A stretch of DNA of 64,000 nucleotides, from the NCBI GenBank assembly GCA_902500055.1, contig GCA_902500055.1_4131.1. One strand, written 5' to 3'. The stretch comes from Escherichia coli (GTDB taxonomy: Bacteria; Pseudomonadota; Gammaproteobacteria; Enterobacterales; Enterobacteriaceae). Below the pieces are notes generated by a model, which had not been told where the DNA came from, ran no database searches, and was given only the letters and a program-made list of their open reading frames with translations. Shown piece by piece: positions 7,923-22,127 of the stretch. Each line of letters begins with the position of its first letter. Position 1 is the first letter of the stretch. The position numbers and the translations under genes are program-made.

Positions 7923-8165
7923 TTACAGTACTTTACTATCAATGGCAACTACTTTTTTAACATTAACGGCGTGGATCACTTCCTTCGTGTTTTTAGTACT
8001 GAATACTTTCGCCGCTCCTTGTTCGACCGTGATACGATAGCGACCATTAACATCAACCATATTAATAAAGTCCGGCGTGCTGAATGGTGTTGTTTTACAT
8101 TTGAGTACTGTTAACAGTTCCACCAGCGATGTAGTTTCTTTGATACGTTTTTCTAAAGTAATCAT
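7923..8165 (-). CDS. hypothetical protein
   Basis: ORF track; start trimmed to Met20; upstream 57 nt is a repeated promoter (TTGACA-17-TACTAT). Confidence 0.5.
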   Translation of the reverse strand: MITLEKRIKETTSLVELLTVLKCKTTPFSTPDFINMVDVNGRYRITVEQGAAKVFSTKNTKEVIHAVNVKKVVAIDSKVL

Positions 8166-8222
8166 TTTGTTTCCCCCGTGTTGGTATGTACATATAGTAC
8201 TAAAACATTTGAGTACTGTCAA

Positions 8223-8441
8223 TTAGATAATATTATATTTCTTTAAAGATAATGCGTCTTGGGTTGGCTGATACTCGATACCGTTCCCATTATTGACTTC
8301 AACTAATAAACCTTTGTCAATTAGTTTTTTAATAGTACGATACCCCTGTTGAAAATTGGTAAAATGTGAATCATTACGAAAGGTATAACCGTGCTTAACT
8401 GCTTCATCAATAGTTTTCTTTTCGATTTTAGATAATTTCAT
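8223..8441 (-). CDS. hypothetical protein
   Basis: ORF track; start trimmed to Met20; same repeated upstream cassette as 7923-8165. Confidence 0.5.
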   Translation of the reverse strand: MKLSKIEKKTIDEAVKHGYTFRNDSHFTNFQQGYRTIKKLIDKGLLVEVNNGNGIEYQPTQDALSLKKYNII

Positions 8442-8494
8442 TTTGTTTCTCCCGTGTTGGTATGTGTACATAATACTAAAACAATTGAGTACTG

Positions 8495-8749
8495 TCAACG
8501 TGATATTAGTTTTATTTTCTTATTATATTGTTGGTGTTCATATAGGTTTATTTTTCCTGTGTTCTCTATTACTATTCTGTTGTTAGTGTCCACATCGATT
8601 ACACGCAGTTTCCCGTTGCTTAACTTCCTTGGTAATAGGTTACCATTAATAAACTCATTAGCAAGCTGTACGGCCTTTGTGATGATTCTCTTCGGTGCTT
8701 TATAGTGTACCCGTAAGATGTTATCTTTATATAGTTGAACCTTAATCAT
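8495..8749 (-). CDS. hypothetical protein
   Basis: ORF track 84 aa. Confidence 0.5.
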   Translation of the reverse strand: MIKVQLYKDNILRVHYKAPKRIITKAVQLANEFINGNLLPRKLSNGKLRVIDVDTNNRIVIENTGKINLYEHQQYNKKIKLISR

Positions 8750-8761
8750 TTTGTTTGTCCT

Positions 8762-8789
8762 ATAAAAAAGGCGGGATCAGTTCCCGCCG
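8762..8789 (-). terminator. intrinsic terminator
   Basis: Minus strand hairpin GGCGGGAACTGATCCCGCC followed by T-run. Confidence 0.55.
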
Positions 8790-8810
8790 TGTTGTTAGTA
8801 CTGCAAGTTA

Positions 8811-9206
8811 TTAGATAACCTGGCGGCGTTTACTGTATACTGTTACACGATTACCCTTACGATCATGTCGGATCTCTTTCTGGTTGCGAATCAGTTCACT
8901 TGGACGCTTAAGGTTTGCCAGGTGATCCGCGTGAGTCCATGCGGTGTGGTTTACCTGTACTTTGATATCAGAATCAGCGATAAACTCATCTTGTGCGTCA
9001 AGTATTGCCGCCAGCATATCCGCTCGTTTTAGTTCTGCTGCTGTTAGTACTGGCTCAGGTGAATTCACAATATCAGAGATTTCTTTGAACTGTACGGCCC
9101 AGCGTTGACCTTTCGGTGCTGTCGTTCCCATGTCTTTAAATGCTGCTCCTTCCTCGCGTGCAACAATACGGGCAGCTTCACGGGTAGCGTAGAATTTAGT
9201 AATCAT
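8811..9206 (-). CDS. hypothetical protein (paralog of 20866-21132)
   Basis: Shared motifs YFATRE.AR, FKDMG, RWAV, RKGNRVTVY. Confidence 0.6.
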   Translation of the reverse strand: MITKFYATREAARIVAREEGAAFKDMGTTAPKGQRWAVQFKEISDIVNSPEPVLTAAELKRADMLAAILDAQDEFIADSDIKVQVNHTAWTHADHLANLKRPSELIRNQKEIRHDRKGNRVTVYSKRRQVI

Positions 9207-9301
9207 GGTATACATCCTATTAGTTGAGTTAGTACTACAAGTTAGAGTCTATTATAAAGTACTATCTGGGCAATGTCAAATAGTACTTTAAATGGATTCT
9301 A

Positions 9302-9625
9302 TTACATGTCTTTCTTACGTTTTACATCGTAGTAGCGAACTGTTATTTCTTTGTTAATCTCTTTTTCGATGCGGTGAATAACTTTTTCTTTCGGGTTGAA
9401 ACCTATAACGGTTTCTTTAATGATCTCCAAACCAGTGTATTCGCCTTGCGTACCGTAACCGTATGTAAAGGTTTCGTGTCCCAGGTCTTCCCAGCGGTCG
9501 CCAATTAACGCAGACACGTAGCAAGAGTGGTAAGTATTGCCGTTCCGATCAGTCCAGCGATTAACTTTAATGTCAAAGGAGGTTACAATTTTCAATTCCA
9601 CTTTCTGGGTAAGGATCATAGCCAT
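9302..9625 (-). CDS. hypothetical protein (paralog of 15258-15602)
   Basis: ORF track 107 aa; shared YGYG core and C-terminal VKRKKD. Confidence 0.6.
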   Translation of the reverse strand: MAMILTQKVELKIVTSFDIKVNRWTDRNGNTYHSCYVSALIGDRWEDLGHETFTYGYGTQGEYTGLEIIKETVIGFNPKEKVIHRIEKEINKEITVRYYDVKRKKDM

Positions 9626-9712
9626 TTTTATTTCTCTCTCTTTGTTAGGAGGGGAACCATTTCCCCGCCTTGATGTAAACTATTATACAGTACTAAGATA
9701 CTTTGTCAATAC

Positions 9713-9988
9713 TTAAGTATTGTAAATGTCGTGAATAGTGATAAAGTTTTTACGCCCGTAAACCTGTAAATCGGTATTAATGTAATGCTTATCAAGTACA
9801 TCCTCGACGCTTAAAGCCGTGTCGTGAATATCTTCGTAGAATTGAGGATCTACAATCTTGCTTAAGTCATCCGGCGTTAACTTATCGTTAAGCCATTGAA
9901 CCGCCTGGATATCTGCATCACGTTTCCATTGTTCCAGGTTAGTAGTCAGTACTTGTTCGATTTCGTTAGCTGTCAGTAGAATCCGCAT
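9713..9988 (-). CDS. hypothetical protein
   Basis: ORF track 91 aa; preceded by long duplicated leader. Confidence 0.55.
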   Translation of the reverse strand: MRILLTANEIEQVLTTNLEQWKRDADIQAVQWLNDKLTPDDLSKIVDPQFYEDIHDTALSVEDVLDKHYINTDLQVYGRKNFITIHDIYNT

Positions 9989-10002
9989 TTTAATGTTTCC
10001 TT

Positions 10003-10190
10003 ATCAGTGGTTGATGTAAGTATTATACTCGTTTACTTTCTATTGTCAAACTATTTTATCAGGGGAGTTTTTCGTATGTCTTACTCCTGGACTACTTAAC
10101 GGGGTTACTTGTTTCGTTCCCCGTCCTGATGTAAAACATTATACTTGATTCTAAGTACAATGCAAGTACTTTTTAAAAATAGTTTTCAGT
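10003..10190 (-). repeat. duplicated leader cassette with tandem promoters (copy 1 of 2)
   Basis: Near-identical to 20138-20320; contains TTGACA-16-TATAAT plus PeSL-type promoter and two hairpins. Confidence 0.6.
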
Positions 10191-10312
10191 ACTTGATAGT
10201 ACTAGCCACCAGCAAACAATAGATACATTTATGCACCCGGTGGGCTAATTTGTTTCTATGCGTATATAATAGCAAAGGGACTGACCGGAGTCAATCCCTT
10301 TTTCAATTATTT

Positions 10313-10462
10313 TTAAACTTCTTTCGGGTTGCGATAGGTGATAGCGTTCGGGTACATTTGTTTAATGTTATTCCATGCCTGGTTAACATTATAACCACTT
10401 GAGCGAATCAGTTGGTTACTACCGACACCTTGAAACACTACTTCAAATAAGAATTCTTTCAT
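10313..10462 (-). CDS. hypothetical small protein (49 aa, below ORF-track cutoff)
   Basis: Manual translation MKEFLFEVVFQG...; ATGA overlap with upstream gene stop. Confidence 0.4.
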   Translation of the reverse strand: MKEFLFEVVFQGVGSNQLIRSSGYNVNQAWNNIKQMYPNAITYRNPKEV

Positions 10463-10632
10463 GCTTTCACCTCGCTATCTGCTTTGCCTTTACGCCAGGC
10501 CGTTGCTAATTGTTCGCGTTGCCATAAGTCGAGTGATACGTAAAGTTTTGCATTATCACCCTTCGGATATTCGCCAGTAGTACCAATCCGATAAAACAGA
10601 TCTTTCAGTACTGTTAATTCTACCTGGACCAT
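10459..10632 (-). CDS. hypothetical small protein
   Basis: ORF track; start trimmed to Met35 (MVQVELTV) with AGAGGA RBS. Confidence 0.5.
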   Translation of the reverse strand: MVQVELTVLKDLFYRIGTTGEYPKGDNAKLYVSLDLWQREQLATAWRKGKADSEVKA

Positions 10633-10718
10633 TATACTTTCCTCTTTGTTAGGAGGGGAACTATTCCCCTTCCGATATAAAACATTATACACTTTATTCA
10701 GTACAGTGCAAGTACTTT

Positions 10719-10931
10719 TTAATCTTTCAGCCAATGATCCTGAATGAATTTTTCACCGAAACCTTGCTGCATTGATTGTAACAGACGTTCGCGATGAGCG
10801 GCGGCGAATTGCTCAGTACTATGCGTTACACCTGGTTGATATCTGGATTCACCATTGGGGGCGATGTATTGTACATCCCACGGTTTTTCGTTAGTATCAG
10901 ACCATTTACGAACGATTAGTTGACCTTGCAT
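10719..10931 (-). CDS. hypothetical protein
   Basis: ORF track 70 aa. Confidence 0.5.
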   Translation of the reverse strand: MQGQLIVRKWSDTNEKPWDVQYIAPNGESRYQPGVTHSTEQFAAAHRERLLQSMQQGFGEKFIQDHWLKD

Positions 10932-11017
10932 TTTTCTTTCCTCTTAGTGGGGAGAATCATTTTCTCCCCTTCATGTAACTTATTATACAGTACTATAATC
11001 TATTGTCCAGTACTTTT

Positions 11018-11206
11018 TTACAGTTTATGAATTAATTCTTTATCTAAGCGATAGCGTACATTATTAATGGTAACAGCATTATTTTTAATGCTACGCTGTA
11101 CGGGTCCACCAGCAATAACAAACGTTGCTTTATTGCCCCGAACAATGATAGCACTTCCAGGATTACCGAAATCATCTTGTACTAAAATACTTGATAAGTT
11201 TTCCAT
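11018..11206 (-). CDS. hypothetical protein
   Basis: ORF track 62 aa. Confidence 0.5.
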   Translation of the reverse strand: MENLSSILVQDDFGNPGSAIIVRGNKATFVIAGGPVQRSIKNNAVTINNVRYRLDKELIHKL

Positions 11207-11284
11207 TTTTATTTCCTCTTAGTAGGGGAAGATGTTTCCCCTTGATGCAAGTACTATAACAGTACTGAAAACTAAATGCAAGTA

Positions 11285-11641
11285 CTATGATAAAATCATG
11301 ATAGGATATTCACTATCTATCAATACCTCGAATCCGAAACCTTCGTACCATTCTTTAAGATTAAAGGCGTTATCTTCTCCCGTATCGCATTCTAAGATGA
11401 TACAATCTGAATCATCGGCGGCATCGATAAAGGCATTCATTAATTCGTTACCTTCACCATTGCCCCGACTATCAGGATCAACATAAAGAGAATCAATAAA
11501 CGCTACACGGTCATAATCAAGATCCGGTGCAATGATTCCACGTTTAACAAACCAGTACTGCAATTGTGCTACTTTGCCCTGTACCTGATAACCAGTGATC
11601 TCTCCATTGTCAGTAGTACGCGTGATATGTTGTATTCCCAT
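11285..11641 (-). CDS. GNAT-like N-acetyltransferase (putative)
   Basis: Motif YVDPDSRGNGEGNELMNAF (R-G-x-G-x-G acetyl-CoA loop) and C-terminal WYEGFGFE. Confidence 0.45.
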   Translation of the reverse strand: MGIQHITRTTDNGEITGYQVQGKVAQLQYWFVKRGIIAPDLDYDRVAFIDSLYVDPDSRGNGEGNELMNAFIDAADDSDCIILECDTGEDNAFNLKEWYEGFGFEVLIDSEYPIMILS

Positions 11642-11705
11642 GATTACTATCCTCAGTTAAGATATAAAACATTATACACTATCTTTCAGTACTGTCAATT
11701 ACTTT

Positions 11706-11963
11706 TTATCTCATAGATCTATGCCAACAATTACGCGGTTGACGTTTAAAAATACTATCATGATCCTCCTGGCAAGTTATGCAGTACTTACACCCCTTAA
11801 CGACCTGGCGGCGATTCTCAGGGATTTTATCGCCGCAGTCGAGGCAATGTATCAGTGATTCTATTTGTGCGTTAATTTGCGTTCTAGCGTGGTTAACAGC
11901 AGCCTGAATCACTGCGTTAATCTCGTCTTGTTCGGCCCCATCTTTCGCGAATCCTACAGCCAT
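11706..11963 (-). CDS. TraR/DksA-family C4 zinc-finger protein (putative)
   Basis: CLDCGDKIPENRR...CKYCITC four-cysteine motif. Confidence 0.55.
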   Translation of the reverse strand: MAVGFAKDGAEQDEINAVIQAAVNHARTQINAQIESLIHCLDCGDKIPENRRQVVKGCKYCITCQEDHDSIFKRQPRNCWHRSMR

Positions 11964-12293
11964 TATTTTAACCTCATTATAAAAATACTATAGTACTGTA
12001 ATGCGACAATAATATTACTTGTTCTTACTTTTTCCAATCCACATGATACCACATATTCATTACCATATGTGCGGAACGATACACCATGAAAATTTTTATA
12101 CACTTGCACTACTAATCATAACCTTTCGTCTAACCAACTGCATAGAATTATACTACTTTACGCAAATTGATCAAGTATTGATCAGATCATTTTTGATCAA
12201 TATTATACAGTTACATTTGTGCACCCTATGGGTTAGTGACGTTCTCGTCTTGATGTAAGTATTATGCCAGTACTGGATGATATTGTCAATAGA

Positions 12294-12491
12294 TTATTTT
12301 AATTTTTTTCTGTCATTGATTAATGCTTTCAGTACTATACTAATGATTTGCAATGATTCATCAATGACTATAAAATTATTTTCTTTCATTAGATGATAGT
12401 TACCATTGATTGTATATTCTAAGGAGTACTGTTTACGTTTAATTTTTGATAATGTTTCTATTTGTTTTTGTACTGATTTCATGCTAATCAT
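12294..12491 (-). CDS. hypothetical protein
   Basis: ORF track 65 aa. Confidence 0.45.
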   Translation of the reverse strand: MISMKSVQKQIETLSKIKRKQYSLEYTINGNYHLMKENNFIVIDESLQIISIVLKALINDRKKLK

Positions 12492-12596
12492 TGGTAAACG
12501 TCCTGTAACGCATTCTAACGAGATAAACGGTTGAGTACTGGCATTGTATAGGGTAATGAATTAAAGCCCACCAGCGTTAACCAGTGGGCTATAATC

Positions 12597-12740
12597 TTAC
12601 ATCTTGCGGATAATCTTAACAGTATCTTTCACCGATTTACCGTTTTGCTGACATTGCTCGATCATCGCGTATTGTTCTGCGGTCAGATCCTCGCCAGTTT
12701 TTGCCAGTACTGCGTCGATGAATGAATCCAGTGCGATCAT
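12597..12740 (-). CDS. hypothetical small protein (47 aa)
   Basis: Manual translation MIALDSFIDAVLAK...; RBS-like AGAGAGAGAAACAAA upstream; hairpin downstream. Confidence 0.4.
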   Translation of the reverse strand: MIALDSFIDAVLAKTGEDLTAEQYAMIEQCQQNGKSVKDTVKIIRKM

Positions 12741-12832
12741 TTTGTTTCTCTCTCTTAGGTTAAGTTAACTACTGTTTATAAAACTTATTATACAGTACTA
12801 TCAAACGTTGTCAATAGTACTGGTAATATATT

Positions 12833-13045
12833 TTAATTGATGATGGTTAATGTAAAGTTATAATCCCCTGCCTGGTATAGTACTTTATCGCCGAACGTGC
12901 CGACACGTTTCATATTGCAATAGATACCCATAACACTTTTTACATCTTTGATATTCCGAACGCCCGTAATATCCTTGTTTAAATGATCGTGATCAGAAAA
13001 TAAAACTTGTTTTGCATTTTTCAGTACAGTGCAGATATTAGCCAT
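12833..13045 (-). CDS. hypothetical protein
   Basis: ORF track 70 aa. Confidence 0.5.
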   Translation of the reverse strand: MANICTVLKNAKQVLFSDHDHLNKDITGVRNIKDVKSVMGIYCNMKRVGTFGDKVLYQAGDYNFTLTIIN

Positions 13046-13141
13046 TTTGTTTTCTCTCTCTGTTAGTGGGGAGAAGTTTTTCTCCCCTTGATGTAAACTA
13101 TTATACAGTACTATAATCTATTGTCAAACTATTTTTTTATA

Positions 13142-13483
13142 TTATTCGAAATCTTCTGGACCGGACTGATAATCATCTTCACCGTATGCACTTTCTAACT
13201 TCTCGCCAGTGTGATCATCAGTTAGTGAATCATCCTCATAATTCACGTCTACGCCTACAATGTAAAACTGGCTATCGTCTGGATCATTGAAATTAATTTT
13301 CTGAATGTTTACAATAACTGTATTGATGCCCAGGACACAGCCATCAGCCGTTACAAAGTACTGATATTTTTCACAACCGCCTGAATTGAAACCGTAATTA
13401 ATTTCGGCCCGACCATCATTTAAACGCAGTGCCTGGGCGATGATTTCATTTTCAAAGTTAGATTGAGCAATTGAGATAGTCAT
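13142..13483 (-). CDS. hypothetical acidic protein
   Basis: ORF track 113 aa. Confidence 0.55.
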   Translation of the reverse strand: MTISIAQSNFENEIIAQALRLNDGRAEINYGFNSGGCEKYQYFVTADGCVLGINTVIVNIQKINFNDPDDSQFYIVGVDVNYEDDSLTDDHTGEKLESAYGEDDYQSGPEDFE

Positions 13484-13697
13484 GATTTGTTTCCTTATTA
13501 CCAGGGGAAACCGTTTCCCCTTTCGATGTAAAACATTATACGCTTATTGAGATAGTTTGCAAGTACTTTTTAAAAATAGTTTTCAGTACTCAATACTTAT
13601 ATAATAGATACACTTATGCACCCGGTGGGCTAGTGAGCTATCTCTCAATGAATATATAATAGCAAAATGGCTGACCGAAGTCAACCACTTTTTTCAT

Positions 13698-13832
13698 TTA
13701 TTTTTTAGCTTTCAGTACTGCCGCCTTTCGCGTCATGCCTTGCTTAATGTACTCCTTTACTTTCGCTTTACGTGCTTTCGCTTTATCTGCTTTCGTTTTA
13801 GGAGTACTGTAAATTAAACCGTTAGGATTCAT
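13698..13832 (-). CDS. hypothetical small basic protein (44 aa)
   Basis: Manual translation MNPNGLIYSTPKTKADKAKARKAK...; terminator hairpin downstream; weak RBS. Confidence 0.3.
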   Translation of the reverse strand: MNPNGLIYSTPKTKADKAKARKAKVKEYIKQGMTRKAAVLKAKK

Positions 13833-13918
13833 TTAAATCACCATAAAGAATAGATAGGTTACTAACAATGCCGCGATCAATGCACCGATCACCGCTGAAC
13901 TGTAATAAGCTAATGATT

Positions 13919-14071
13919 TCATTTTTTAGCCTGAAAATAATGTTTAATTTGAGCGGCGGTCAGTGCACAATTACGCAGGAAGTTTTCTGTATAACTTTTG
14001 CGAGTACTGAAAGAGAATTGACCTTTGCCGTTACCGATAGTAACATCAAACCGAGCGTTGTATTGTTTCAT
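13919..14071 (-). CDS. hypothetical small protein
   Basis: ORF track; start trimmed to Met11. Confidence 0.45.
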   Translation of the reverse strand: MKQYNARFDVTIGNGKGQFSFSTRKSYTENFLRNCALTAAQIKHYFQAKK

Positions 14072-14152
14072 TTTGTTTCTCCTGTTATTGGGGAGAATCA
14101 TTTCTCCCCTTCATGTAAACTATTATACAGTACTAAAAACTAATTGCAAGTA

Positions 14153-14299
14153 CTATTTTTTAGATTTACGCAAACTTTCTACCATCTCAGGAGTAAGGCC
14201 CGGCGGGTAGGAAACTACTTCATCAACGAAACGTAAAGGGAATACCCCAGCGAAAGGTGAACGTGCTTTCTTAGTATTACTCTTTTTTGATGCTTTCAT
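14153..14299 (-). CDS. hypothetical small basic protein (48 aa)
   Basis: Manual translation MKASKKSNTKKARSPF...; AAGGAA RBS; PeSL upstream. Confidence 0.4.
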   Translation of the reverse strand: MKASKKSNTKKARSPFAGVFPLRFVDEVVSYPPGLTPEMVESLRKSKK

Positions 14300-14368
14300 T
14301 TCATATTCCTTAATTAGTGGGGAGAATCATTTCTCCCCTTCATGTAAAACATTATACGCGTTTAAAAA

Positions 14369-14578
14369 CTAATTGCAAGTACTATTTGAAAGTAAATGCT
14401 CATACGCTGCATTAACTACGTTTTCAATAACCGACTGTACAGAAAGATCCCCCACGTCCTGGCTATAGTAGAAATCGCTTACAGTGGTGTCATCGTATGC
14501 AAATACTTTACCAGGTACGGCATCAATCACATACATATTAACCTTTAAGATGTCGATCTTATCCTGTACAGTAAGCAT
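14369..14578 (-). CDS. hypothetical protein
   Basis: ORF track 69 aa. Confidence 0.5.
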   Translation of the reverse strand: MLTVQDKIDILKVNMYVIDAVPGKVFAYDDTTVSDFYYSQDVGDLSVQSVIENVVNAAYEHLLSNSTCN

Positions 14579-14583
14579 ATTAA

Positions 14584-14856
14584 TTAACCTTTTAAGTACT
14601 GGCTTAAGTAGTCTTGTTGATCTTCGGTGATTGCAGCCATCTTCCCTAGTACTGGATTGATGATATAATCCCCTGTAACGTCCTGTAACGCATTCTCAGG
14701 CGGTTTAACGGCTGGGGTAGCCATAGCCATTGCCTGGACTTGTTCGACGCTGTAACGCTCATATAGGCGGCATTCTTCCGGTGTTAACATAGCATCAGTA
14801 CGCTTCATCGGTTTAATGATGCTTTCGATCTCATTCAGTACTTGATTAACGTTCAT
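14584..14856 (-). CDS. hypothetical protein
   Basis: ORF track 90 aa. Confidence 0.55.
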   Translation of the reverse strand: MNVNQVLNEIESIIKPMKRTDAMLTPEECRLYERYSVEQVQAMAMATPAVKPPENALQDVTGDYIINPVLGKMAAITEDQQDYLSQYLKG

Positions 14857-14907
14857 GGTATAATCCCCAATATAAGCGGCCTGAATCGACCGCTAACGAT
14901 GTTTTGA

Positions 14908-15177
14908 TTAATAGGTGTATGGTTGACGCTCAAACAATGATTGCACGTTGTACGCCCCGCTTATGGGCTTCGCTGGTAAATCAATTTTATATTGTTCACG
15001 CTTAAAGATAATAAAACGGCAATTGTTTTTAACATCAAAATTGATTGAACGTTCCAGGAGTTTACCATCGTGCACAAATACAAGATAACCGCTTGGTACT
15101 TGTTTTGTAGTACTGGTTGCAACCATAGACCGCCGAACATGTGTACCTGCATCGATTAAAGTACTGATATTTTTCAT
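14908..15177 (-). CDS. hypothetical protein
   Basis: ORF track 89 aa. Confidence 0.5.
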   Translation of the reverse strand: MKNISTLIDAGTHVRRSMVATSTTKQVPSGYLVFVHDGKLLERSINFDVKNNCRFIIFKREQYKIDLPAKPISGAYNVQSLFERQPYTY

Positions 15178-15257
15178 TATACGATCCTCTTAAGTTAATT
15201 TAATTTCTTTCCCCTATGCAGACACTATATCAAAGTATCTGCATAAAGTAAAGCTAA

Positions 15258-15602
15258 TTAAAGATCTTTTTTGCGTTTAACATCAGTTACCGAACTGTAA
15301 ACAGTGATATTATTGTCACGGCAAAAACGGGAAAGATAAGAACCGCGTAAAAACTCTTTATCTTCCATATTAATAACCTTGCTAAATTCTTCCATTGCTA
15401 CAGTGTCAAAGTGATCCCCGTATCCATATTGGAACGGCACGTTTACTACTTCAATAAAATTACCATCAATTTCTACGTCTACACTTAAAGAGAAATAAGT
15501 GTTACCATATGAAGCCTGGAACCAACGCCGAGCGGCAATATGTACAACTTCAACAGAAGACAGGTTGATATTTTGTTTTGCGATAGTGTTGATATTAGCC
15601 AT
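15258..15602 (-). CDS. hypothetical protein (paralog of 9302-9625)
   Basis: ORF track 114 aa; shared C-terminal VKRKKD and YGYG core. Confidence 0.6.
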   Translation of the reverse strand: MANINTIAKQNINLSSVEVVHIAARRWFQASYGNTYFSLSVDVEIDGNFIEVVNVPFQYGYGDHFDTVAMEEFSKVINMEDKEFLRGSYLSRFCRDNNITVYSSVTDVKRKKDL

Positions 15603-15690
15603 TTTAATTTCCTCTTAGTTGTCTTGATAAAATCTATTATGCCAGTACTATCAAACTATGTCAATAGTACTGTGATAATATTTTTACTTA
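15603..15690 (-). repeat. about 90 bp promoter-region direct repeat (second copy 15897-15990)
   Basis: TTGTTTCCTCTTAGTTGTCTTGATAAAATCTATTATGCCAGTACTATCAAACTATGTCAATAGTACTGTGATAATATTTTTACTTAC occurs twice. Confidence 0.7.
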
Positions 15691-15896
15691 CTTTCTTTCG
15701 CTGCTTTGTGCGTTGCCACTGCCATAACCACATCAGCACGAACAAAGTTTTTTACCGTGTCAGTGTAGTAATTGATTGCATCGTCAACATCTGTAAAAAT
15801 CCGATACATGCCGCACCACGATACTTTATAACCTTCTTTCACTTCTTCCAGCTTAACCAGTGATTTGTTTACTTTGATTTTTGTGATGATAGCCAT
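15684..15896 (-). CDS. hypothetical protein
   Basis: ORF track 70 aa. Confidence 0.55.
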   Translation of the reverse strand: MAIITKIKVNKSLVKLEEVKEGYKVSWCGMYRIFTDVDDAINYYTDTVKNFVRADVVMAVATHKAAKESK

Positions 15897-15977
15897 TATT
15901 GTTTCCTCTTAGTTGTCTTGATAAAATCTATTATGCCAGTACTATCAAACTATGTCAATAGTACTGTGATAATATTT

Positions 15978-16121
15978 TTACTTACTTTTTGCTTTCTTTG
16001 CTGCTTCCACCTGGTCGGCCCACTCTTTACCCCATACCTGAGCGTTATAGTGATACTGACAAAGAGCAACGCCCCGCTTTAAACCAGTAATAGATTTCTG
16101 ACCACATTGACAAGTTTTCAT
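15978..16121 (-). CDS. hypothetical small Cys-containing protein (47 aa)
   Basis: Manual translation MKTCQCGQKSITGLKRGVALCQYHY...; AAGGAAA RBS. Confidence 0.4.
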   Translation of the reverse strand: MKTCQCGQKSITGLKRGVALCQYHYNAQVWGKEWADQVEAAKKAKSK

Positions 16122-16207
16122 TTTAGTTTCCTTGTAGTGGGGAGAACCATTTTCTCCCCTTGATGTAATGTATTATACTTTATTCGATTTACTTTGCAAG
16201 TACTTTT

Positions 16208-16435
16208 TTAATTTAATTCATCAAGGCAAAGGATACGCTCAACGCCCAAATCAGTTAAACTAATCGACGGCACTTGATAGGTTTCAATGTATGCTACACT
16301 TGCCCACTGACCGAACTCATTAACGGCCCAGGTATTCATTGCATTTTGCAATTCCGCACCTTCCTTGTTGGTAATGACTGCAACTACTTGTTCGTTGCCA
16401 GTAGTACCAGATACGCGAGTAATGATAATAGCCAT
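16208..16435 (-). CDS. hypothetical protein
   Basis: ORF track; start trimmed to Met20. Confidence 0.5.
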   Translation of the reverse strand: MAIIITRVSGTTGNEQVVAVITNKEGAELQNAMNTWAVNEFGQWASVAYIETYQVPSISLTDLGVERILCLDELN

Positions 16436-16669
16436 TGTTTTGATTCCTTTGATTTGGAAGGAGAACCGTTTCCCCCTCTCGATGTAAAACATTATACGCT
16501 AATCTCTTAATCGTGCAAGTACTTTTTATTACTTTTTGCAAAATACTTTAAACGCACTCAATCGCATTCTAACGACTTTAACGCCACCAGCTAGGGCAAT
16601 GCATCAGATAAACAGTTTAATACGTTAGAATCGTTTCTAGGCGGTGCTGGTGGCCTGGTAAACGATAAA

Positions 16670-16700
16670 CACAAAAAAGCCCACTGTATAAGTGGGCTAA
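16670..16700 (-). terminator. intrinsic terminator
   Basis: Minus strand hairpin AGCCCACTTATACAGTGGGCT followed by TTTTTTGTG. Confidence 0.55.
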
Positions 16701-16719
16701 TGATTCAGTACTTTAATTG

Positions 16720-17202
16720 TTATGCTTCAACTTTGCGATGAGCTTCGATCCATTCCTCGCGAGTCATACCACTGGAGTTAATCGCATCCAGTACTACCGC
16801 AATGCAGTTACCACGCACCGGAATCAGATATTCTTCCCCGTTATCAAGTACTACCGCTACACGTTCTTGAATCCATTTTTTAGCTTTTACTTCTGGCTTA
16901 TCTTCACCGTACTTTTTCGCCAGGGCTTTTTGTGCCATCTCTGTAACTACTTCCAGATCCAATCCAACTACTGCCGCCTGAATACTTTCAATTGTTGCTT
17001 GTAGTTCTGCTTCACGGGCCGCCTTTGCCGCTTCAATTTCTGCCGCTTTATTTGCTTGTAGTTCTTTCGCAGTACTGTAAGCGATGTTAAAATTATTGCG
17101 TACCGCTTTCATGGTATCGTTATCCAGTTCAGCCAGGATCTCAGCCGCGACGTTAGTTTCATTTGCTACCAGTGCTTTGATGAATGATTTTACATTAGCC
17201 AT
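16720..17202 (-). CDS. hypothetical Ala-rich coiled-coil protein
   Basis: ORF track; start trimmed to Met6 with GAGGA RBS. Confidence 0.6.
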   Translation of the reverse strand: MANVKSFIKALVANETNVAAEILAELDNDTMKAVRNNFNIAYSTAKELQANKAAEIEAAKAAREAELQATIESIQAAVVGLDLEVVTEMAQKALAKKYGEDKPEVKAKKWIQERVAVVLDNGEEYLIPVRGNCIAVVLDAINSSGMTREEWIEAHRKVEA

Positions 17203-17401
17203 TTTATAAATCCTCAATTAAAGTTTAGTTTACGTTTATTAGTGTATCAAAGTTTTCTCGACGTGTCCAGTTTTTCGTTCGACTTACTGGCGGTCTACTT
17301 AGTGCTCCCCGTCTTGATGTAATACATTCTACGCTTTTCTGCGGTAATGTCAACTACTTTCTTAAAACTATTTTCAAAGTATCTCAGTACTACGATACTA
17401 C

Positions 17402-17431
17402 AAAAACAAAAAAAGCCCACCAGGTGGGCTA
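17402..17431 (-). terminator. intrinsic terminator
   Basis: Minus strand hairpin AGCCCACCTGGTGGGCT followed by TTTTTTTGTTTTTG. Confidence 0.6.
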
Positions 17432-17436
17432 TGTAC

Positions 17437-17667
17437 TTAATCAGTGAGTAAAATATTAAACACTTTACCATTTAACGTTATTGGTGCACTGCTACCAGGC
17501 TCAAGATCCGTTAATATACCTGCAATCGCTTTATCATTGGCGACCTTTCCAGTGTCCAACAGTACTACAGTACTGATAAGATTAACGCTCGTTTCAATAT
17601 CATAATGCACGGCGTTAAGTAGTTGTGTAGTACTGCTTTCGTTAAGTAAAACAATTCGCTTAGTCAT
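17437..17667 (-). CDS. hypothetical protein
   Basis: ORF track 76 aa. Confidence 0.5.
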   Translation of the reverse strand: MTKRIVLLNESSTTQLLNAVHYDIETSVNLISTVVLLDTGKVANDKAIAGILTDLEPGSSAPITLNGKVFNILLTD

Positions 17668-17688
17668 GATGTTACCCCGTAGTATCTA

Positions 17689-17988
17689 TCAACGGCAATT
17701 AATAACGCCGGTATGCGTTACTTTCTCAGTATCCATTACAGTGACCGAACCGCGTTTAGTACTGGCATCATAATAAATTGTCGTGCTACCGTTTTCGTCT
17801 TCTTCATGGAACGGGCCGTTTTTAAATGCTTCCGGCTGAATCTCCAGATCCTTTAATACAATCTCGCCAGTACTTTCATCGGTCATTGCAACAGTGCACT
17901 GAATGAATTTTTCACTACTTACATCTAATGACGCATTAACAGCGAAAGAGGAAACAGATAAAGCCAGGGCGATGATTGTAATTTTCAT
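17689..17988 (-). CDS. secreted protein (signal peptide)
   Basis: N-terminus MKITIIALALSVSSFAVNAS. Confidence 0.55.
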   Translation of the reverse strand: MKITIIALALSVSSFAVNASLDVSSEKFIQCTVAMTDESTGEIVLKDLEIQPEAFKNGPFHEEDENGSTTIYYDASTKRGSVTVMDTEKVTHTGVINCR

Positions 17989-18072
17989 TTGATTATCCTT
18001 AGTTACCAGGGGGAACCGCTCCCCCTTGCGATGTAAAATATTATACAGTACTAAAAACTATTATCAAGTACT

Positions 18073-18309
18073 TTATGATTTTTTATAAAACATTTCAGCA
18101 GTGATATTTTTACCCGTTGGCTGTACTTTATCCAGAATTTTTTGATGCCCTGGTCGTCCAAAGGAATATGATCCGTAAACAGTAAACCAGTAGTTGCCAT
18201 CAGTGTTTACATGTACAGCACAATAGGGTACGCCCCGCGATTCATCACTAGTAAAGTGTGCTACCGTTCCCGTTACATTCGAAGTCGTTGATTTGATTTG
18301 TTCAAGCAT
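18073..18309 (-). CDS. hypothetical protein
   Basis: ORF track 78 aa. Confidence 0.5.
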   Translation of the reverse strand: MLEQIKSTTSNVTGTVAHFTSDESRGVPYCAVHVNTDGNYWFTVYGSYSFGRPGHQKILDKVQPTGKNITAEMFYKKS

Positions 18310-18553
18310 TTTATTATTCCTTAGTTACCAGGGGGAACCGCTCCCCCTATGCAAAACATTATACGCGTTTAAAAACTAATTGCAAGTATTTTAATAAAAA
18401 GTATTTGAAAAATAGTTGTTGACAAGTGCATCCAGTACTGGCATAATTACTACATCAAGACGAAACAGTCACTAACCCACCGGGTGCCGAGATCCGTCTA
18501 TTAAATGATTCAGTACTGAAAAAGTAACGGGGAGTTATTATCTCCCCGCGTTG

Positions 18554-18775
18554 TTATTTTGTAAGGTATAAACAGAAGTCGCCTTTATTTGCTACGCCGC
18601 CAGTGTAACGCGATGAATAGTTAGAAACGTCCTGGACTTCTGCTATTACCAGGGTATCATCATTCAATTCGTCGCAGAAGCAAACGGCTGGATCTTGTAC
18701 GCCGATTTTGTCGGCATGTTCCCGCATAGATTTCACCAGTGCTTCCAGTTGGGAAAGAGTAGTGATATTAGCCAT
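18554..18775 (-). CDS. hypothetical protein
   Basis: ORF track; start trimmed to Met11. Confidence 0.5.
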   Translation of the reverse strand: MANITTLSQLEALVKSMREHADKIGVQDPAVCFCDELNDDTLVIAEVQDVSNYSSRYTGGVANKGDFCLYLTK

Positions 18776-18863
18776 TTTATTTTCCTCATTACCAGGGAGA
18801 ACCATTTCTCCCTTTGATGTAAACCATTATACAGTACTGAAAACTAATTGCAAGTACTTTTTT

Positions 18864-19124
18864 TCAGTATTGTTTATCGTCGTCTTCCTCGATGAATTGA
18901 CCGACGAAATGATCTACTTTCGCTTTGAGGCTTTTATAATCTTCTTCTACTTCCGTTAAACGTTCCTGGTAGTATTCCAGTGCCTCAAGATACGCCGCCT
19001 CAGCAGTTTTTGCACGCATAGCTAAATTCATTCCACGCGTTTCATCATAAAGCCAATAACCATCGGTGCACTGGCTAATAGATAATGACTTGCTTAGTGC
19101 TGTATAGCTAATTACTTTACTCAT
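18864..19124 (-). CDS. hypothetical protein
   Basis: ORF track 86 aa. Confidence 0.5.
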   Translation of the reverse strand: MSKVISYTALSKSLSISQCTDGYWLYDETRGMNLAMRAKTAEAAYLEALEYYQERLTEVEEDYKSLKAKVDHFVGQFIEEDDDKQY

Positions 19125-19181
19125 TAGATAACCCTCAGTAAAGGCGGGAACTATTACCCGCCATTATCTCAGTACTGAATA

Positions 19182-19421
19182 TTACATTCCAACCATTGCA
19201 GCACGGATCGCCGTAGTGCTATACTTGAATCCGTCCGGCGTTGTAGTAGTACCGTTGGCTTTTAATCTGCGGTACATACATTCCGCAGCAATATCTTTCG
19301 TTTTACTTTGTGCGATGCAATTTTGAGCAATCCGGTATAATGATTCATCGTTATTGATCCAAAGGCTTACATTCCAATGAGTTTTGTTTTTGTGCCCGTT
19401 GTAAGTTTTAGTACTAGCCAT
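19182..19421 (-). CDS. hypothetical protein (paralog of 21221-21460)
   Basis: Shared HKNKTHWNVSLWINNDE and TPDGFKYSTTAIRAAMVGM. Confidence 0.6.
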   Translation of the reverse strand: MASTKTYNGHKNKTHWNVSLWINNDESLYRIAQNCIAQSKTKDIAAECMYRRLKANGTTTTPDGFKYSTTAIRAAMVGM

Positions 19422-19511
19422 TTTTAAATCCTCGTTTGAGCGGGGAACCACTCCCCGCCTTGATGTAAAGTATTATACGCTTTTAAACTTAGTTTACAAG
19501 TACTTTTTAAA

Positions 19512-20120
19512 TTAATATTCGATTGATTCCACTACGCCATCAATAACATTGAATTGATATTCGTTACCCTCAATCAGTGCAGTAATGTTTTCAGTAGTGA
19601 ATTGATCCTCATATGCATTCTCTAAATCACGGTACAACTTACGAGATAATTCACGGATCGCATCAGTCAGTAAGTTTTCCAGATCCTCAGCCAATGCCGC
19701 CTGTTTTACAGTTAAATCAGTGTAGCGAGTATCAACGCAACCGCCTACCGTGTTTTCGTGTGCGTAGCGTGATTGGAAACGTTCTACACTCATTTCTAAA
19801 TCATCCTCGTTCAACAGGTGACGGATTGAACGATATTTCGTTAACGCCTTAACCTTGCGTAAAAACTTCTCAGCGTCAACGTGGTTAGTACTGATTGATG
19901 CACCGTCACCTTGCGACCAAAAACCACTGTATTGCAATTCAGCTTCATCTATGCCGTATTCTGGTAGTACTGTTTCTTTATAGTACTCGATAACGCCCTC
20001 AGCAAAGAAATTATCCTCACATGAACGCTCACGATCCCGAACCAGTTCAATAGCCGCCGTTTTTTGTTCTGCGTTCAGTTCAGAAAAAGCCATAACAAAA
20101 GTAGTAGTGATAGTTTTCAT
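19512..20120 (-). CDS. hypothetical acidic protein
   Basis: ORF track 202 aa; GAGGG RBS; preceded by duplicated leader. Confidence 0.6.
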   Translation of the reverse strand: MKTITTTFVMAFSELNAEQKTAAIELVRDRERSCEDNFFAEGVIEYYKETVLPEYGIDEAELQYSGFWSQGDGASISTNHVDAEKFLRKVKALTKYRSIRHLLNEDDLEMSVERFQSRYAHENTVGGCVDTRYTDLTVKQAALAEDLENLLTDAIRELSRKLYRDLENAYEDQFTTENITALIEGNEYQFNVIDGVVESIEY

Positions 20121-20137
20121 TTTGTAACCCTCATTCA

Positions 20138-20320
20138 GTAGTTGATGTAAGTATTATACGCTTTTACTTTCTATTGTCAAACTATTTTATCAGGGGAGTT
20201 TTTCGTGTGCCTTACTCCTGGGCTACTTAACGGGAAGTTACTTATTTCGTTCCCCGTCCTGATGTAAAACATTATACGCCTTTAAACATAGTTTACAAGT
20301 ACTTTTTAAAAATAGTTTTC
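20138..20320 (-). repeat. duplicated leader cassette with tandem promoters (copy 2 of 2)
   Basis: Near-identical to 10003-10190. Confidence 0.6.
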
Positions 20321-20547
20321 AGTACTGAATATTAAAAAAAAGTATTGACAGCATTATCAAGTACTGGCATAATATACCCCATGACAACAGCTAACCCACC
20401 GGGTGCACAATTGTAACTATACTAAACTAATTTTTCTATAGATACACTCCCGCACCCTATGGGCTACGGCTTATCTGCCAATGAATACATTATGCCAGTA
20501 CTGACAAAATAAGTCAATACCGGCAATTGTAAAGATTTGTAAACTGC

Positions 20548-20784
20548 TTATACTGCAATCGCGTCCAGGCTGTAATAATAATAAGTGCCGTATTGGTGTA
20601 CTTTATTACCTTTTATTTCAGTACTGAATGAATCCGAACGGTTTGCATATGATGTTAATTTAAAGTACTTTGATTTGCTGATACGTTGCCATACACCACA
20701 GATCCGCTGTAAGTAAGTAGTTTTATTCGTGGTAGTATCTTTTACGGTTTTAACTTCAGTCATATACATATTAGTCATTTTCAT
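20548..20784 (-). CDS. hypothetical protein
   Basis: ORF track 78 aa. Confidence 0.45.
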   Translation of the reverse strand: MKMTNMYMTEVKTVKDTTTNKTTYLQRICGVWQRISKSKYFKLTSYANRSDSFSTEIKGNKVHQYGTYYYYSLDAIAV

Positions 20785-20865
20785 TACTCCAGGTTATAGG
20801 CGGGAAGAGTTCCCGCTCTCGATGTAAAACATTATACGCTTTTATCAGTACGGTGCAAGTACTTT

Positions 20866-21132
20866 TTATTCAAGTACTGCAATCTTTTTAGTACGGTACA
20901 CGGTCACGCGGTTGCCCTTTCGGTCGAGCTTTATTTCTACCACTCGACGCGATACACTATCGGGACTTTTTAAGGCCGCTAACCAGTACTGTAATGATCT
21001 GGCCGTACTACGCTTTACAATGGCCCAACGTTCACCACTTGCCGATCCCGCTCCCATATCTTTAAACGTTGCCCCGTCCTGGCGTGCGGCGATCCGAGCT
21101 TGTTCACGCGTCGCAAAATACTTAATATTCAT
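20866..21132 (-). CDS. hypothetical protein (paralog of 8811-9206)
   Basis: Start trimmed to Met13; shared motifs with 8811-9206. Confidence 0.6.
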   Translation of the reverse strand: MNIKYFATREQARIAARQDGATFKDMGAGSASGERWAIVKRSTARSLQYWLAALKSPDSVSRRVVEIKLDRKGNRVTVYRTKKIAVLE

Positions 21133-21220
21133 GTTGTTGCCCTTATCGTTGGTGTATGAATAAAACACTATTATAAAGTACTATCCCCGTGCAATAGTAC
21201 TTTAAATAAATTCTATTCTA

Positions 21221-21460
21221 TTACATTCCAACCATAGCCGCACGGATCGCAGTAGTGCTATATTTGAATCCGTCCGGTGTTTTATCTTGTCCAGTCTGTT
21301 CTAAAAATAACATCATATGACGGGCCGCATCATTGCGATTAGTATTGGCGGCAATAAAGTCCAGGGCCAACCGATACAATCCCTCATCGTTATTAATCCA
21401 CAGGCTTACATTCCAATGAGTTTTGTTTTTGTGACCTAAGAACATTTTTGATTTAGCCAT
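21221..21460 (-). CDS. hypothetical protein (paralog of 19182-19421)
   Basis: Start trimmed to Met14; shared motifs. Confidence 0.6.
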   Translation of the reverse strand: MAKSKMFLGHKNKTHWNVSLWINNDEGLYRLALDFIAANTNRNDAARHMMLFLEQTGQDKTPDGFKYSTTAIRAAMVGM

Positions 21461-21552
21461 TTTTTTAATCCTCTTATATAGTGGGGAACTATTCCCCACC
21501 TGATGTAAAACATTATACGCTTTTATTCAGTACTGTCAAACTAATTTTTAAC

Positions 21553-21915
21553 TTATTCGTAAATTTTGCCACTGTCAGCCCATACCAGGAAACGAGGCAT
21601 ATTATCCCATGCATCTTGTTTTAAATTTAAACCGTGTAATACTTCTGTACTTTCCATTCCTGGTACTGGTTTACTATACACCGCGAAATTTTCGCCCATA
21701 TACTGATAAACCATCGTCAAATCACTGGCGATCATCTTATGGATCATCGCATCAAGCATCACGGTGGCGGCGTATTGTTCACGCTTAAGCGGCAGCATTT
21801 TAATCAGTTCGCGGTATGCGTCAATGTGAGTTTTAACCGTTGCCGCCGGAAGATCTTTCATATCGTCGCGGAAGTTAACCAGGTTAGCAATGATTTTAGT
21901 GATTTGAGTCGCCAT
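21553..21915 (-). CDS. hypothetical protein
   Basis: ORF track 120 aa. Confidence 0.55.
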   Translation of the reverse strand: MATQITKIIANLVNFRDDMKDLPAATVKTHIDAYRELIKMLPLKREQYAATVMLDAMIHKMIASDLTMVYQYMGENFAVYSKPVPGMESTEVLHGLNLKQDAWDNMPRFLVWADSGKIYE

Positions 21916-22027
21916 CGTTTTAATCTCTTAAAAGTGAGTAGGGAAGTGTTCCCGCTCTCGATGTAAAACATTATACGCTTTTTTCAGTACTGTGCAAGTA
22001 CTTTCTACAAATACTTTTAAAATAGTT

Positions 22028-22127
22028 TTCTTTCTATATAGGGGAACTATTATTCAGTACTGAATCAATCCAGGGGAACTATCTTTCTATATAGGAGTAC
22101 TATTATTCAGTACTGAATCAATCCACT
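22028..22127. repeat. tandem direct repeat, 2 x about 45 bp
   Basis: TCTTTCTATATAGG(G/A)G..ACTATTATTCAGTACTGAATCAATCCA occurs twice in tandem. Confidence 0.7.

Follow-up and report, generated by a model that had tools for sequence, protein, structure and literature searches.

The window analysed here is a 64,000-nucleotide (nt) stretch of Escherichia coli assembly GCA_902500055.1 (contig GCA_902500055.1_4131.1), and the subject of this report is an array of small genes within it together with the family of promoter cassettes that precede most of them. Approximately 16 kb around these features matches Asteriusvirus jumbo coliphages (G17, WPEC5, phAPEC6, PBECO4, 121Q and others) in a patchy fashion at 88-95% identity, with the best single matching record covering 66% of it. 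The records of G17 and WPEC5 start exactly at what is window position 3056, and a repeat junction in the JP4 record maps to 23652|3056. In addition, a direct terminal repeat (DTR) is annotated at 1-21525 in the record of phage vB_Ec-M-J, and a 20,993-bp terminal repeat of phage fEgEco12 was confirmed by PhageTerm and restriction digests (PMC13070987). As the record starts, the junction and the annotated and confirmed repeats agree, positions 3056-23652 are assigned to a phage DTR of ~20.6 kb, which is present as one collapsed copy in the assembly. By its similarity to these records, the region is the interior of the DTR of an Asteriusvirus (PBECO4/121Q/phAPEC6-like) jumbo coliphage, and every feature of the original prediction, which described dispersed paralogs with duplicated promoters, falls inside it.

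Genes and promoter cassettes of the terminal repeat

The DTR gene array comprises about 47 small genes on the minus strand. In the window as a whole, genes are laid out on the minus strand to about 28 kb and a plus-strand array begins at 28.4 kb, while the GC skew flips sign near 24 kb. Every DTR protein tested against Pfam and PHROG profiles is of unknown function, and the small genes are most likely early genes for host takeover. The gene starts that had been proposed are ATG codons with an upstream ribosome-binding site (RBS). A tRNA search of the window found none, and an Rfam search gave 0 matches at the gathering threshold and two chance-level matches at E<1, which rules out a known RNA or tRNA origin of the repeats.

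Three pairs of paralogs are dispersed through the array, all on the minus strand. An all-versus-all blastp comparison of every open reading frame (ORF) in the window returns exactly these three dispersed pairs within 7-23 kb, in agreement with what had been claimed. The first consists of A1 (8811-9206, 131 aa, function unknown) and A2 (20866-21132, 88 aa), which lacks a 45-aa central segment of A1; over 124 aligned columns, with an indel of 45 aa, their identity is 35% (E=4e-19), and both belong to phrog_8127 (E=1e-34 and 3e-24, respectively). The second pair, B1 (19182-19421) and B2 (21221-21460), each of 79 aa, is 65% identical (E=1e-37), and both proteins match phrog_871 (E ~1e-29 for either) and the Pfam family DUF7249 (53.3 bits for B1 and 44.5 bits for B2, with a cutoff of 27). 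The third, C1 (9302-9625, 107 aa) and C2 (15258-15602, 114 aa), is 30% identical (E=4e-10) and falls into phrog_6246 (4e-35 for C1 and 7e-43 for C2).

The repeated promoters noticed earlier are likewise real. An apparent 90-bp promoter repeat proves to be slightly longer: its copies at 15590-15694 and 15884-15988, both on the minus strand, span 105 nt and are 95.2% identical. The downstream copy, upstream of C2, has an extended -10 promoter (TTGACA-17-TGGCATAAT) and an RBS with no hairpin, and the upstream copy lies ahead of gene 15684-15896. The 57-nt upstream cassette is also shared as described, between 8166-8222 (TTGACA-17-TACTAT plus RBS, upstream of gene 7923-8165) and 8442-8498 (TTGACA-17-TATTAT plus RBS, upstream of gene 8223-8441), again on the minus strand; these copies are 89.5% identical and the two genes that follow them are unrelated. 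Both repeats are a small sample of a much larger cassette family with about 40 copies.

Several searches define this family. The pattern TTGNNN-N16-18-TAKAAT is matched 44 times in the window as against 4.3 +/- 2.5 in shuffles, and about 30 of the matches are on the minus strand at 3.9-23.3 kb. With an independent scanner, 12 sites match sigma-70 perfectly (12/12), each of them on the minus (coding) strand. A cassette profile run over the 64 kb with nhmmer detects 28 strong promoter-hairpin cassettes, which are confined to the minus strand and to positions 3898-22016; elsewhere it gives a single weak match. The typical cassette of ~90 nt reads, on the transcribed strand, AAAAAGTAC-TTGCAA-N16-TATAAT-GTTTTACATC-(GGGGAGAA-loop-TTCTCCCC)-ACTAA-AAGGA-N7-ATG, that is, an A-tract, a -35 box, a 16-nt spacer, TATAAT, GTTTTACATC, a hairpin, a Shine-Dalgarno sequence and the start codon. 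The AT-rich tract upstream of most -35 boxes is AAAAAGTAC or AAATAGT. A second flavour has TTGACA-N9-AGTACTG-TATAAT-AGTTTACATC followed by a hairpin, and a third, which includes the 105-nt repeat, has an extended -10 (TTGACA-N17 ending in TGG, then CATAAT) and is without a hairpin. When the ~47 DTR genes are sorted by their upstream element, using gene calls that are crude, 24 have a hairpin cassette, 9 a promoter without hairpin and 14 neither. About 33 of the 47 genes (about 70%) are thus predicted to be autonomous expression units with a near-consensus sigma-70 promoter of their own, and terminator-like hairpins occur in the DTR only once per 1-3 kb.

Probable recombination through the cassettes

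Homology blocks were chained between window positions 3056-23500 and seven relatives (G17, WPEC5, phAPEC6, PBECO4, JP4, A4 and SD-1_S14). Relative to the window, these phages differ by dozens of single-gene insertions, deletions and replacements. The ends of the homology blocks are concentrated in the cassettes: 28 of 47 distinct ends fall inside cassettes, which occupy 17.5% of the sequence (binomial p=1.3e-10). Further, 30 of 67 junctions overlap by 20-123 nt (with the threshold set at >=20 nt), such that a cassette stands on each side of the extra gene in the longer genome and a single cassette remains in the shorter one.

Individual loci display this arrangement clearly. Gene 15684-15896 (minus strand), which encodes 70 aa and is 84% identical to a gene of the Vequintavirinae phage A5-4, is bracketed by the two 105-nt repeats. 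Phage phAPEC6 is missing exactly this gene, and its lone cassette matches the upstream window copy on its left and the downstream copy on its right. Of the 57-nt pair, precisely one unit (8241-8437) is missing from PBECO4 and SD-1_S14. The gene at about 6373-6777 has a promoter-hairpin cassette as its downstream flank (6295-6377) and another as the upstream flank of the indel (6788-6874), both identified by profile and breakpoints, on the minus strand and 85% identical; the gene is missing in WPEC5, phAPEC6, PBECO4, JP4 and SD-1_S14, and WPEC5 has a chimeric single cassette in place of the two. In five of the seven relatives (G17, WPEC5, PBECO4, A4 and SD-1_S14), two copies of the cassette upstream of C1 (9639-9727, minus strand; profile and breakpoints) enclose an extra gene, as do two copies of the one upstream of B2 (21474-21555, minus strand; profile and breakpoints) in PBECO4 and A4. 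Repeated flanks and chimeric cassettes of this kind are the signature expected of homologous exchange between cassettes, and shuffling of single-gene units via their promoter cassettes is strongly supported. A history of shuffling had been proposed for the region together with segmental duplication. The shuffling stands, with single genes as its units and cassettes as its joints; the segmental duplication does not, except for pair A at most, as the comparisons found no multi-gene segmental duplication and no duplicated block exceeding one gene.

The paralogs have had different histories. Positions of A1, A2, B2 and C1 are fixed in 7/7 relatives. Family A is found in RaK2-like jumbo phages only; each terminal repeat has two copies of it in Asteriusvirus and a single copy in RaK2, K64-1 and Muenster, which infect Klebsiella. 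With this confinement and copy number, pair A fits an old duplication within the lineage. B1 is a variable gene, missing in three of the seven relatives (G17, A4 and JP4), and is 89-91% identical to genes of ~145-150-kb coliphages (91% to Vequintavirinae A5-4) versus 65% to B2. At the C2 slot, C2 itself is found in the window, phAPEC6 and A4, and a third allele, 33-38% identical to both C1 and C2, in the remaining five relatives; C2 is 75-85% identical to genes of ~150-kb phages of the Phapecoctavirus/Justusliebigvirus type versus 30% to C1. Since both are closer to genes of other phages than to their in-genome partners and are variable or allelic among close relatives, B1 and C2 are better explained as exchanged members of their families than as duplicates within the genome. 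The promoters do not follow the paralogs, contrary to the pairing of the two in the original prediction: identity between the B1 and B2 upstream cassettes is 69%, which places this pair at the 59th percentile of all cassette pairs and rules out co-duplication of promoter and paralog.

The cassettes also extend beyond the jumbo phages. With one 95-nt cassette as query, multiple copies are found in every Asteriusvirus, and further matches in the Vequintavirinae (A5-4, A73, W70), phage nepoznato, an Erwinia jumbo phage and the Klebsiella phage fENko-Kae01, in the last within the terminal repeat. In A5-4 and in A73, nine of the small window genes lie within a 5-kb stretch at 30-91% amino acid identity (eight of them at >=59%), including separate B1-like and B2-like copies; the gene order is unlike that of the window and the same promoter-hairpin cassettes are present. 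Nucleotide homology to this stretch is 85-88% and stops at unit boundaries, that is, at the limits of cassettes or ORFs. The shared blocks comprise exactly the 240-nt coding sequence of B1, gene 15684-15896 with both of its flanking promoters (339 nt), and two genes with their cassettes (516 nt). One such unit is the cassette at 16131-16217 (minus strand; profile), which A5-4 and A73 have together with the same gene.

Taken together, the data are probably best explained by a DTR array of single early genes driven by cassettes and shuffled by recombination through these cassettes. In this mechanism, host sigma-70 RNA polymerase would transcribe every unit immediately after DNA entry, and the terminal repeat would provide two copies of each unit per genome, as for the host-takeover module of SPO1 (PMC6873191). 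The 5'-proximal hairpin would stabilise or insulate the mRNA of each unit. The ~90-nt cassettes would serve as portable homology for the phage recombination system, and exchange between them would allow single genes to be added, dropped or swapped free of polar effects on their neighbours. Among the paralogs, A would represent one old duplication, and B1 and C2 would have been brought in or exchanged through cassettes.

This behaviour resembles that of the promoter early stem-loop (PeSL) cassettes of T4-type phages (Arbiol et al. 2010, PMC2839356; Comeau et al. 2014, PMC4122927), for which a mechanism of modular shuffling was proposed and partly demonstrated. Recombination between PeSL cassettes is also associated with mini-circles in infected cells. 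Both are intergenic cassettes of ~70-100 nt with an AT-rich tract, sigma-70-type -35 and -10 boxes, a GGGG...CCCC stem-loop, a Shine-Dalgarno sequence and a start codon; both accumulate in hyperplastic regions, where the small genes have no known function (here, 28/28 are in the DTR array); and in both, single genes have been inserted, deleted or replaced between close relatives, with the junctions located in cassettes. The differences are that PeSLs belong to a T4-like lineage whereas the present cassettes belong to a RaK2-like jumbo phage, that the array here fills a long direct terminal repeat, and that units are also found in a different phage subfamily. In addition, the T4-type stem-loop is a terminator that mostly separates or overlaps the promoter hexamers, whereas here it is always in the 5' untranslated region (UTR), 9-14 nt past the -10 box and with no T-run, a position that corresponds to the rarest PeSL subclass. 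The composite promoter-terminator arrangement of PeSLs is not seen in the sequence of the cassettes, and only four separate DTR hairpins (4513, 7268, 10274 and 13664) have it. The cassettes thus appear to work like PeSL shuffling, with the distinction of another phage lineage, a terminal-repeat location, a 5'-UTR hairpin of fixed position and units shared across families. In the searchable literature, PeSLs and jumbo phages are mentioned together in one paper only, by way of its reference list.

Other known systems are more distant. The SPO1 host-takeover module and the T5 type share with this array dense small genes, strong host-type promoters and RBSs, and a long terminal repeat that is present twice per genome. 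In phage T5, the pre-early genes are located within the terminal repeats. Neither is related in sequence; here nearly every gene has its own promoter from one cassette family, gene content varies strongly between close relatives, and an early role is predicted. Lambdoid morons (PMC2839356) are also single genes with their own promoter inserted between others, but they have no conserved repeated flanks and usually their own terminator, whereas here the cassettes supply homology and most units are without a terminator. RpoD-like promoters with UP elements were predicted in the Rak2-like phage CBB, where they extend from the early region into the terminal repeat (PMC5259590), and 33 sigma-70 promoters in rV5 (PMC3606486). 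These host-type promoters are similarly concentrated in early regions of small genes, but the two papers treat promoters only, with no 5'-UTR hairpin, cassette family, coincidence with breakpoints or cross-family sharing. The phAPEC6 and fEgEco12 papers are silent on promoters.

Two other explanations of the array have to be weighed. The first supposes intragenomic segmental duplication and rearrangement, in which the repeated promoters are leftovers copied with the paralogs. It accounts for the three pairs being genuine homologs and for the distribution of family A, and the near identity of certain cassette pairs (95% and 85%) indicates that at least some cassettes were copied recently. It is nonetheless quite improbable, as duplicated blocks never go beyond one gene, cassettes upstream of paralogs are no more alike than random pairs, and the near-identical pairs (8166/8442, 15590/15884 and 6295/6788) flank unrelated genes; the affinities of B1 and C2 to other phage families, and their variability among close relatives, also speak against it. 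Local tandem duplication or gene conversion of cassettes as a general pattern is ruled out too, given that adjacent and distant cassettes are equally similar (p=0.26). The other explanation holds that cassettes are alike through shared functional constraint and play no part in recombination, which would be illegitimate and occur anywhere, with selection retaining the intergenic events. Near-consensus promoters are necessarily similar, the mean identity between cassettes is about 68%, and selection alone would indeed enrich breakpoints in intergenic DNA. Constraint does not account for the 30 of 67 junctions with overlaps of 46-123 nt, at which cassettes are paired in the longer genome and single in the shorter, for Vequintavirinae homology that stops at cassette and ORF limits, or for homology that continues past the hexamers into the spacer, the initial transcribed sequence and the hairpin. 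Moreover, the single cassettes of phAPEC6 and WPEC5 are clean chimeras of two window copies, and since chimeric single cassettes are not expected from such filtering, illegitimate recombination plus selection is disfavoured and very unlikely.

Recombination through the cassettes therefore remains the preferred explanation, and a number of points weigh against it. The intergenic enrichment of breakpoints just mentioned is one, so that specific support for homologous exchange comes only from the repeated flanks and the chimeras. For fourteen of the ~47 genes, no promoter of their own is recognised. Similarity between adjacent cassettes (identity 0.69) is no higher than between distant ones (0.675), so that frequent local gene conversion is not indicated. 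The activity of the promoters, their timing and the transcription starts are predictions from the consensus, and a literature search found no transcriptome or functional data for Asteriusvirus.

A broader proposal, put forward tentatively and somewhat short of an even chance, is that the cassettes are the currency of early-gene exchange across families. Single host-takeover genes would move, with their own host-type promoter and 5' leader, between Asteriusviruses and unrelated ~140-150-kb coliphages (Vequintavirinae, Phapecoctavirus/Justusliebigvirus type) through recombination in the cassettes they share, and the 5'-UTR hairpin would have a function within each unit that moves. In a stronger form, the palindrome CAGTACTG and the element X described below may constitute a phage-encoded layer of control on the units. 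If true, PeSL-type shuffling would be extended from plasticity within a family to gene flow between families.

The significance of these cassettes lies in the genes they carry. Most jumbo-phage genes are of unknown function and the most variable ones sit in regions such as this array. A terminal repeat composed of self-contained expression units, with regulatory cassettes as recombination joints, would explain the turnover of early genes, a repertoire that probably includes anti-defence and host-takeover functions, and cassette shuffling would explain why identical small genes occur in otherwise unrelated coliphages. On the practical side, the cassettes mark unit boundaries and likely transcription starts, which is an aid to annotation; they offer about 30 natural variants of predicted strong promoters and leaders; and they indicate where genes could be inserted or removed without polar effects.

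The hairpin in the 5' untranslated region

The hairpin is present in the 28 cassettes as a GC-rich stem of 7-10 bp of the GGGGAGAA...TTCTCCCC type. Its stem always starts 9-14 nt past the -10 box, which corresponds to about +3 to +7 of the predicted transcript. The stem core, GGGGA(G)AA...TT(C)TCCCC, is strongly conserved and the G-rich arm is always 5'. The sequence nevertheless varies, and 23 window cassettes hold 21 distinct hairpins. In about half of the hairpins, GGAG is found in the 5' arm and ATG in the loop (GGGGAGAAATGA/ATGG), for example at 14321-14340, 14092-14111 and 16140-16162. This mimics an RBS and start codon at too short a spacing and misleads automatic start finding; the cassette spans used here were fixed and not set by automatic start-codon calls.

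Since a MAFFT alignment of cassettes puts hairpins of different loop length out of register, pairing was evaluated by own-arm versus swapped-arm folding and in a subset of equal loop length. In the window cassettes, folding each 5' arm with its own 3' arm gives -12.0 kcal/mol, and swapping arms between cassettes weakens this to -9.2 kcal/mol (permutation p<=0.0005). When the set is widened to 159 cassettes, taken from the window and nine related loci, 36 distinct hairpins are obtained, and their pairs comprise 280 Watson-Crick, 5 G.U, 0 A.C and 1 other. In an ungapped alignment of 37 distinct hairpins with a loop of 3, seven of ten pairs have changed on both sides. Cells changed on both sides number 45 in this loop-3 set as against 17.2 +/- 4.0 in shuffles (0/500 reaching the observed value), and the covariation score is 0.408 compared with 0.195 for shuffled sets and <=0.181 for slid registers. 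Because the arm-swap, compensatory-change and covariation tests agree, the structure of the hairpin is under selection and is maintained by compensatory substitutions.

As for its role, the hairpin at the extreme 5' end of the mRNA is conjectured most likely to stabilise the transcript or to insulate the RBS. One alternative is that it acts as a terminator or attenuator limiting read-through from upstream, as proposed for classical PeSLs. The GGGG...CCCC stem-loops of PeSLs do terminate transcription in reporter assays (PMC2839356), and substantial read-through is expected here, given a tight head-to-tail gene order in which real terminators are spaced 1-3 kb apart. However, the scanner that calls eight other hairpins on the same strand terminator-like calls none of the 5'-UTR hairpins, none of these is followed by a T-run, and their distance past the -10 box is fixed, which places them within the transcript of their own unit. 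Intrinsic terminators are thereby ruled out by sequence, and the hairpin lies in the unit's own leader and is not a canonical intrinsic terminator; a terminating or attenuating role in the wider sense is unlikely. Alternatively, the hairpin could be an operator for a phage RNA- or DNA-binding protein that shuts off or processes the early transcripts together. T4 RegA and RegB are proteins that act on early mRNAs. Conservation of the stem core in both sequence and pairing, with the G-rich arm always first, would suit such a protein. Yet stems vary by compensatory change and loops are variable, which points to a structural rather than a sequence-specific requirement, and no candidate binding protein was identified, so this role is given only a small probability.

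Stabilisation or insulation by a selected hairpin is the favoured role, and three observations temper it. The rows used for covariation in the loop-3 subset were preselected for pairing, so that the percentage of paired positions is uninformative. The asymmetry of G.U to A.C pairs (5:0, p=0.06) hints at structure on the RNA level and is not significant. Lastly, with ~3-7 nt between the predicted 5' end and the stem, protection against 5'-end-dependent decay would be borderline.

Further cassettes, repeated elements and flanking regions

The remaining promoter-hairpin cassettes are distributed along the minus strand and were found with the profile. They lie at 3898-3987 (nhmmer E=1e-20), 4775-4857 (7e-17), 5415-5499 (2e-14), 5745-5836 (8e-20), 10642-10728, 13056-13145, 14307-14398, 16447-16537, 17997-18084, 18318-18403, 20787-20875 and 21933-22016, with a further one at 19430-19518 upstream of B1 and a degenerate copy at 11214-11295 (1.5e-7). 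Breakpoints accompany the profile match at 10940-11028 and 18783-18871, which are indel junctions in WPEC5, and at 14079-14164, an indel junction in WPEC5 and A4. The promoter at 17304-17372 (minus strand; profile) has a TAGAAT -10 box and an atypical downstream structure.

Four intergenic modules of ~230-340 nt are found at 7060-7320, 9990-10330, 13470-13720 and 20120-20560. They are 83-86% identical in the most similar pairs and ~60-86% overall, and parts of them recur, at 83-91% identity, in the Vequintavirinae phages A5-4 and A73. Their order is a terminator hairpin with an embedded promoter, element X, TTCAGTACTGAA, and an early promoter with its hairpin, with a second promoter in two of them. 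The early promoters are the profile-matched cassettes at 7094-7182 (module M1) and 13492-13581 (M3) and two promoters with a longer hairpin at 10115-10184 (M2) and 20248-20317 (M4), all on the minus strand. The terminator hairpin, AAAGGGATTGACTCCGGTCAGTCCCTTT with an embedded TTGACT-17-TATTAT promoter, is a predicted composite terminator/promoter and is found on the minus strand at 4513-4540, 7268-7295 (M1), 10274-10301 (M2) and 13664-13691 (M3). The same design (AAAGG-TTGACT-TCGGTCA-CCTTT, then TATAAT) recurs beyond the DTR at 47438-47500 (+), 54225-54252 (-) and 58226-58255 (-).

Element X, CCCAYMGGGTGC, occurs in nine copies where 0.19 are expected, all of them in the terminal repeat. Six are on the minus strand (4472-4483, 7222-7233, 10233-10244, 12221-12232, 13618-13629 and 20452-20463) and three are antisense on the plus strand (18476-18487, 20395-20406 and 22550-22561). 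Each copy lies 21-28 nt past the -10 box (TATTAT, CATAAT or TATAAT) of its own promoter. About 40 distinct versions are found in relatives, and a small hairpin upstream of the element shows seemingly compensatory variation (GAG/CTC, GGC/GCC, GAC/GTC, GTC/GAC and TAG/CTA). A structured small RNA formed by CCCAYMGGGTGC and its flanks is unsupported: the outer stems that several subtypes seem to have are at non-homologous distances, folding z-scores range from -0.2 to -2.1, and element X has no Rfam match.

Promoters of the extended -10 type precede element X at 12261-12289 (-; TTGACA-17-TGGCATAAT), 18419-18447 (+), 20345-20373 (+) and 20489-20517 (-). The two on the plus strand, together with another at 22278-22305 (+), are antisense within the minus-strand gene array, and that at 18419 faces the 3' end of gene 18554-18805. 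The promoters at 20345-20373 and 20489-20517 converge from a distance of about 115 nt, and their predicted transcripts overlap in antisense.

The 8-bp palindrome CAGTACTG is present in 72 copies in the window as compared with 1.03 +/- 0.96 expected (0/100 shuffles), and AGTACT in 296 copies versus roughly 22 expected, an estimate from base composition. Sites of the octamer are densest at 3056-28300, with zero copies in 1-3055; 44 of the 72 are in coding sequence, and their flanks are symmetric, T-rich 5' and A-rich 3'. Within promoters it appears as CAGTACTG|TATAAT, as AAAAAGTAC|TTGCAA and as TTCAGTACTGAA just upstream of the A-tract and -35 box. It is clearly also a genome-wide signal. Its sites are conserved in relatives in 80% of cases versus 72% for other octamers (p=0.004), and it occurs at 1.0-2.0 per kb in 7/7 Asteriusvirus loci and is absent from two Vequintavirinae loci. 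It could be the operator of a regulator, a modification site or a nucleoid-protein site; a literature search on the octamer returned nothing useful.

Functional hints in the DTR are limited to a few minus-strand genes, at 7307-7894, 11285-11641 and 11706-11963. They consist of one weak protein-kinase match (Pfam E=0.004, below threshold) and, from annotations of related records, a GNAT-type acetyltransferase and a DksA/TraR-like zinc-finger protein. The acetyltransferase gene is missing in G17, PBECO4 and SD-1_S14. At the right end of the DTR, about 1.9 kb (21970-23925) is without a convincing gene. Within this stretch, 22745-22843 is an array of about 12 copies of an 8-bp unit (TAGCCGTC / CATCCAGC), several CAGTACTG sites are present, and the boundary of the repeat lies at 23652; the stretch is a candidate packaging or replication-origin region.

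Two tandem arrays flank the DTR on either side, at 1-2958 and 23926-28072, both on the minus strand. Each has about a dozen small paralogs of 60-85 aa that are 27-56% identical, and their genes mostly abut or overlap, with no promoter cassettes between them. On the plus strand, 28381-43468 is a tandem array of about 12 paralogs of 240-410 aa. The corresponding genes of relatives carry the annotation RCC1/ATS1-like 'regulator of chromosome condensation', and many members share a near-identical N-terminal segment of ~20 residues.

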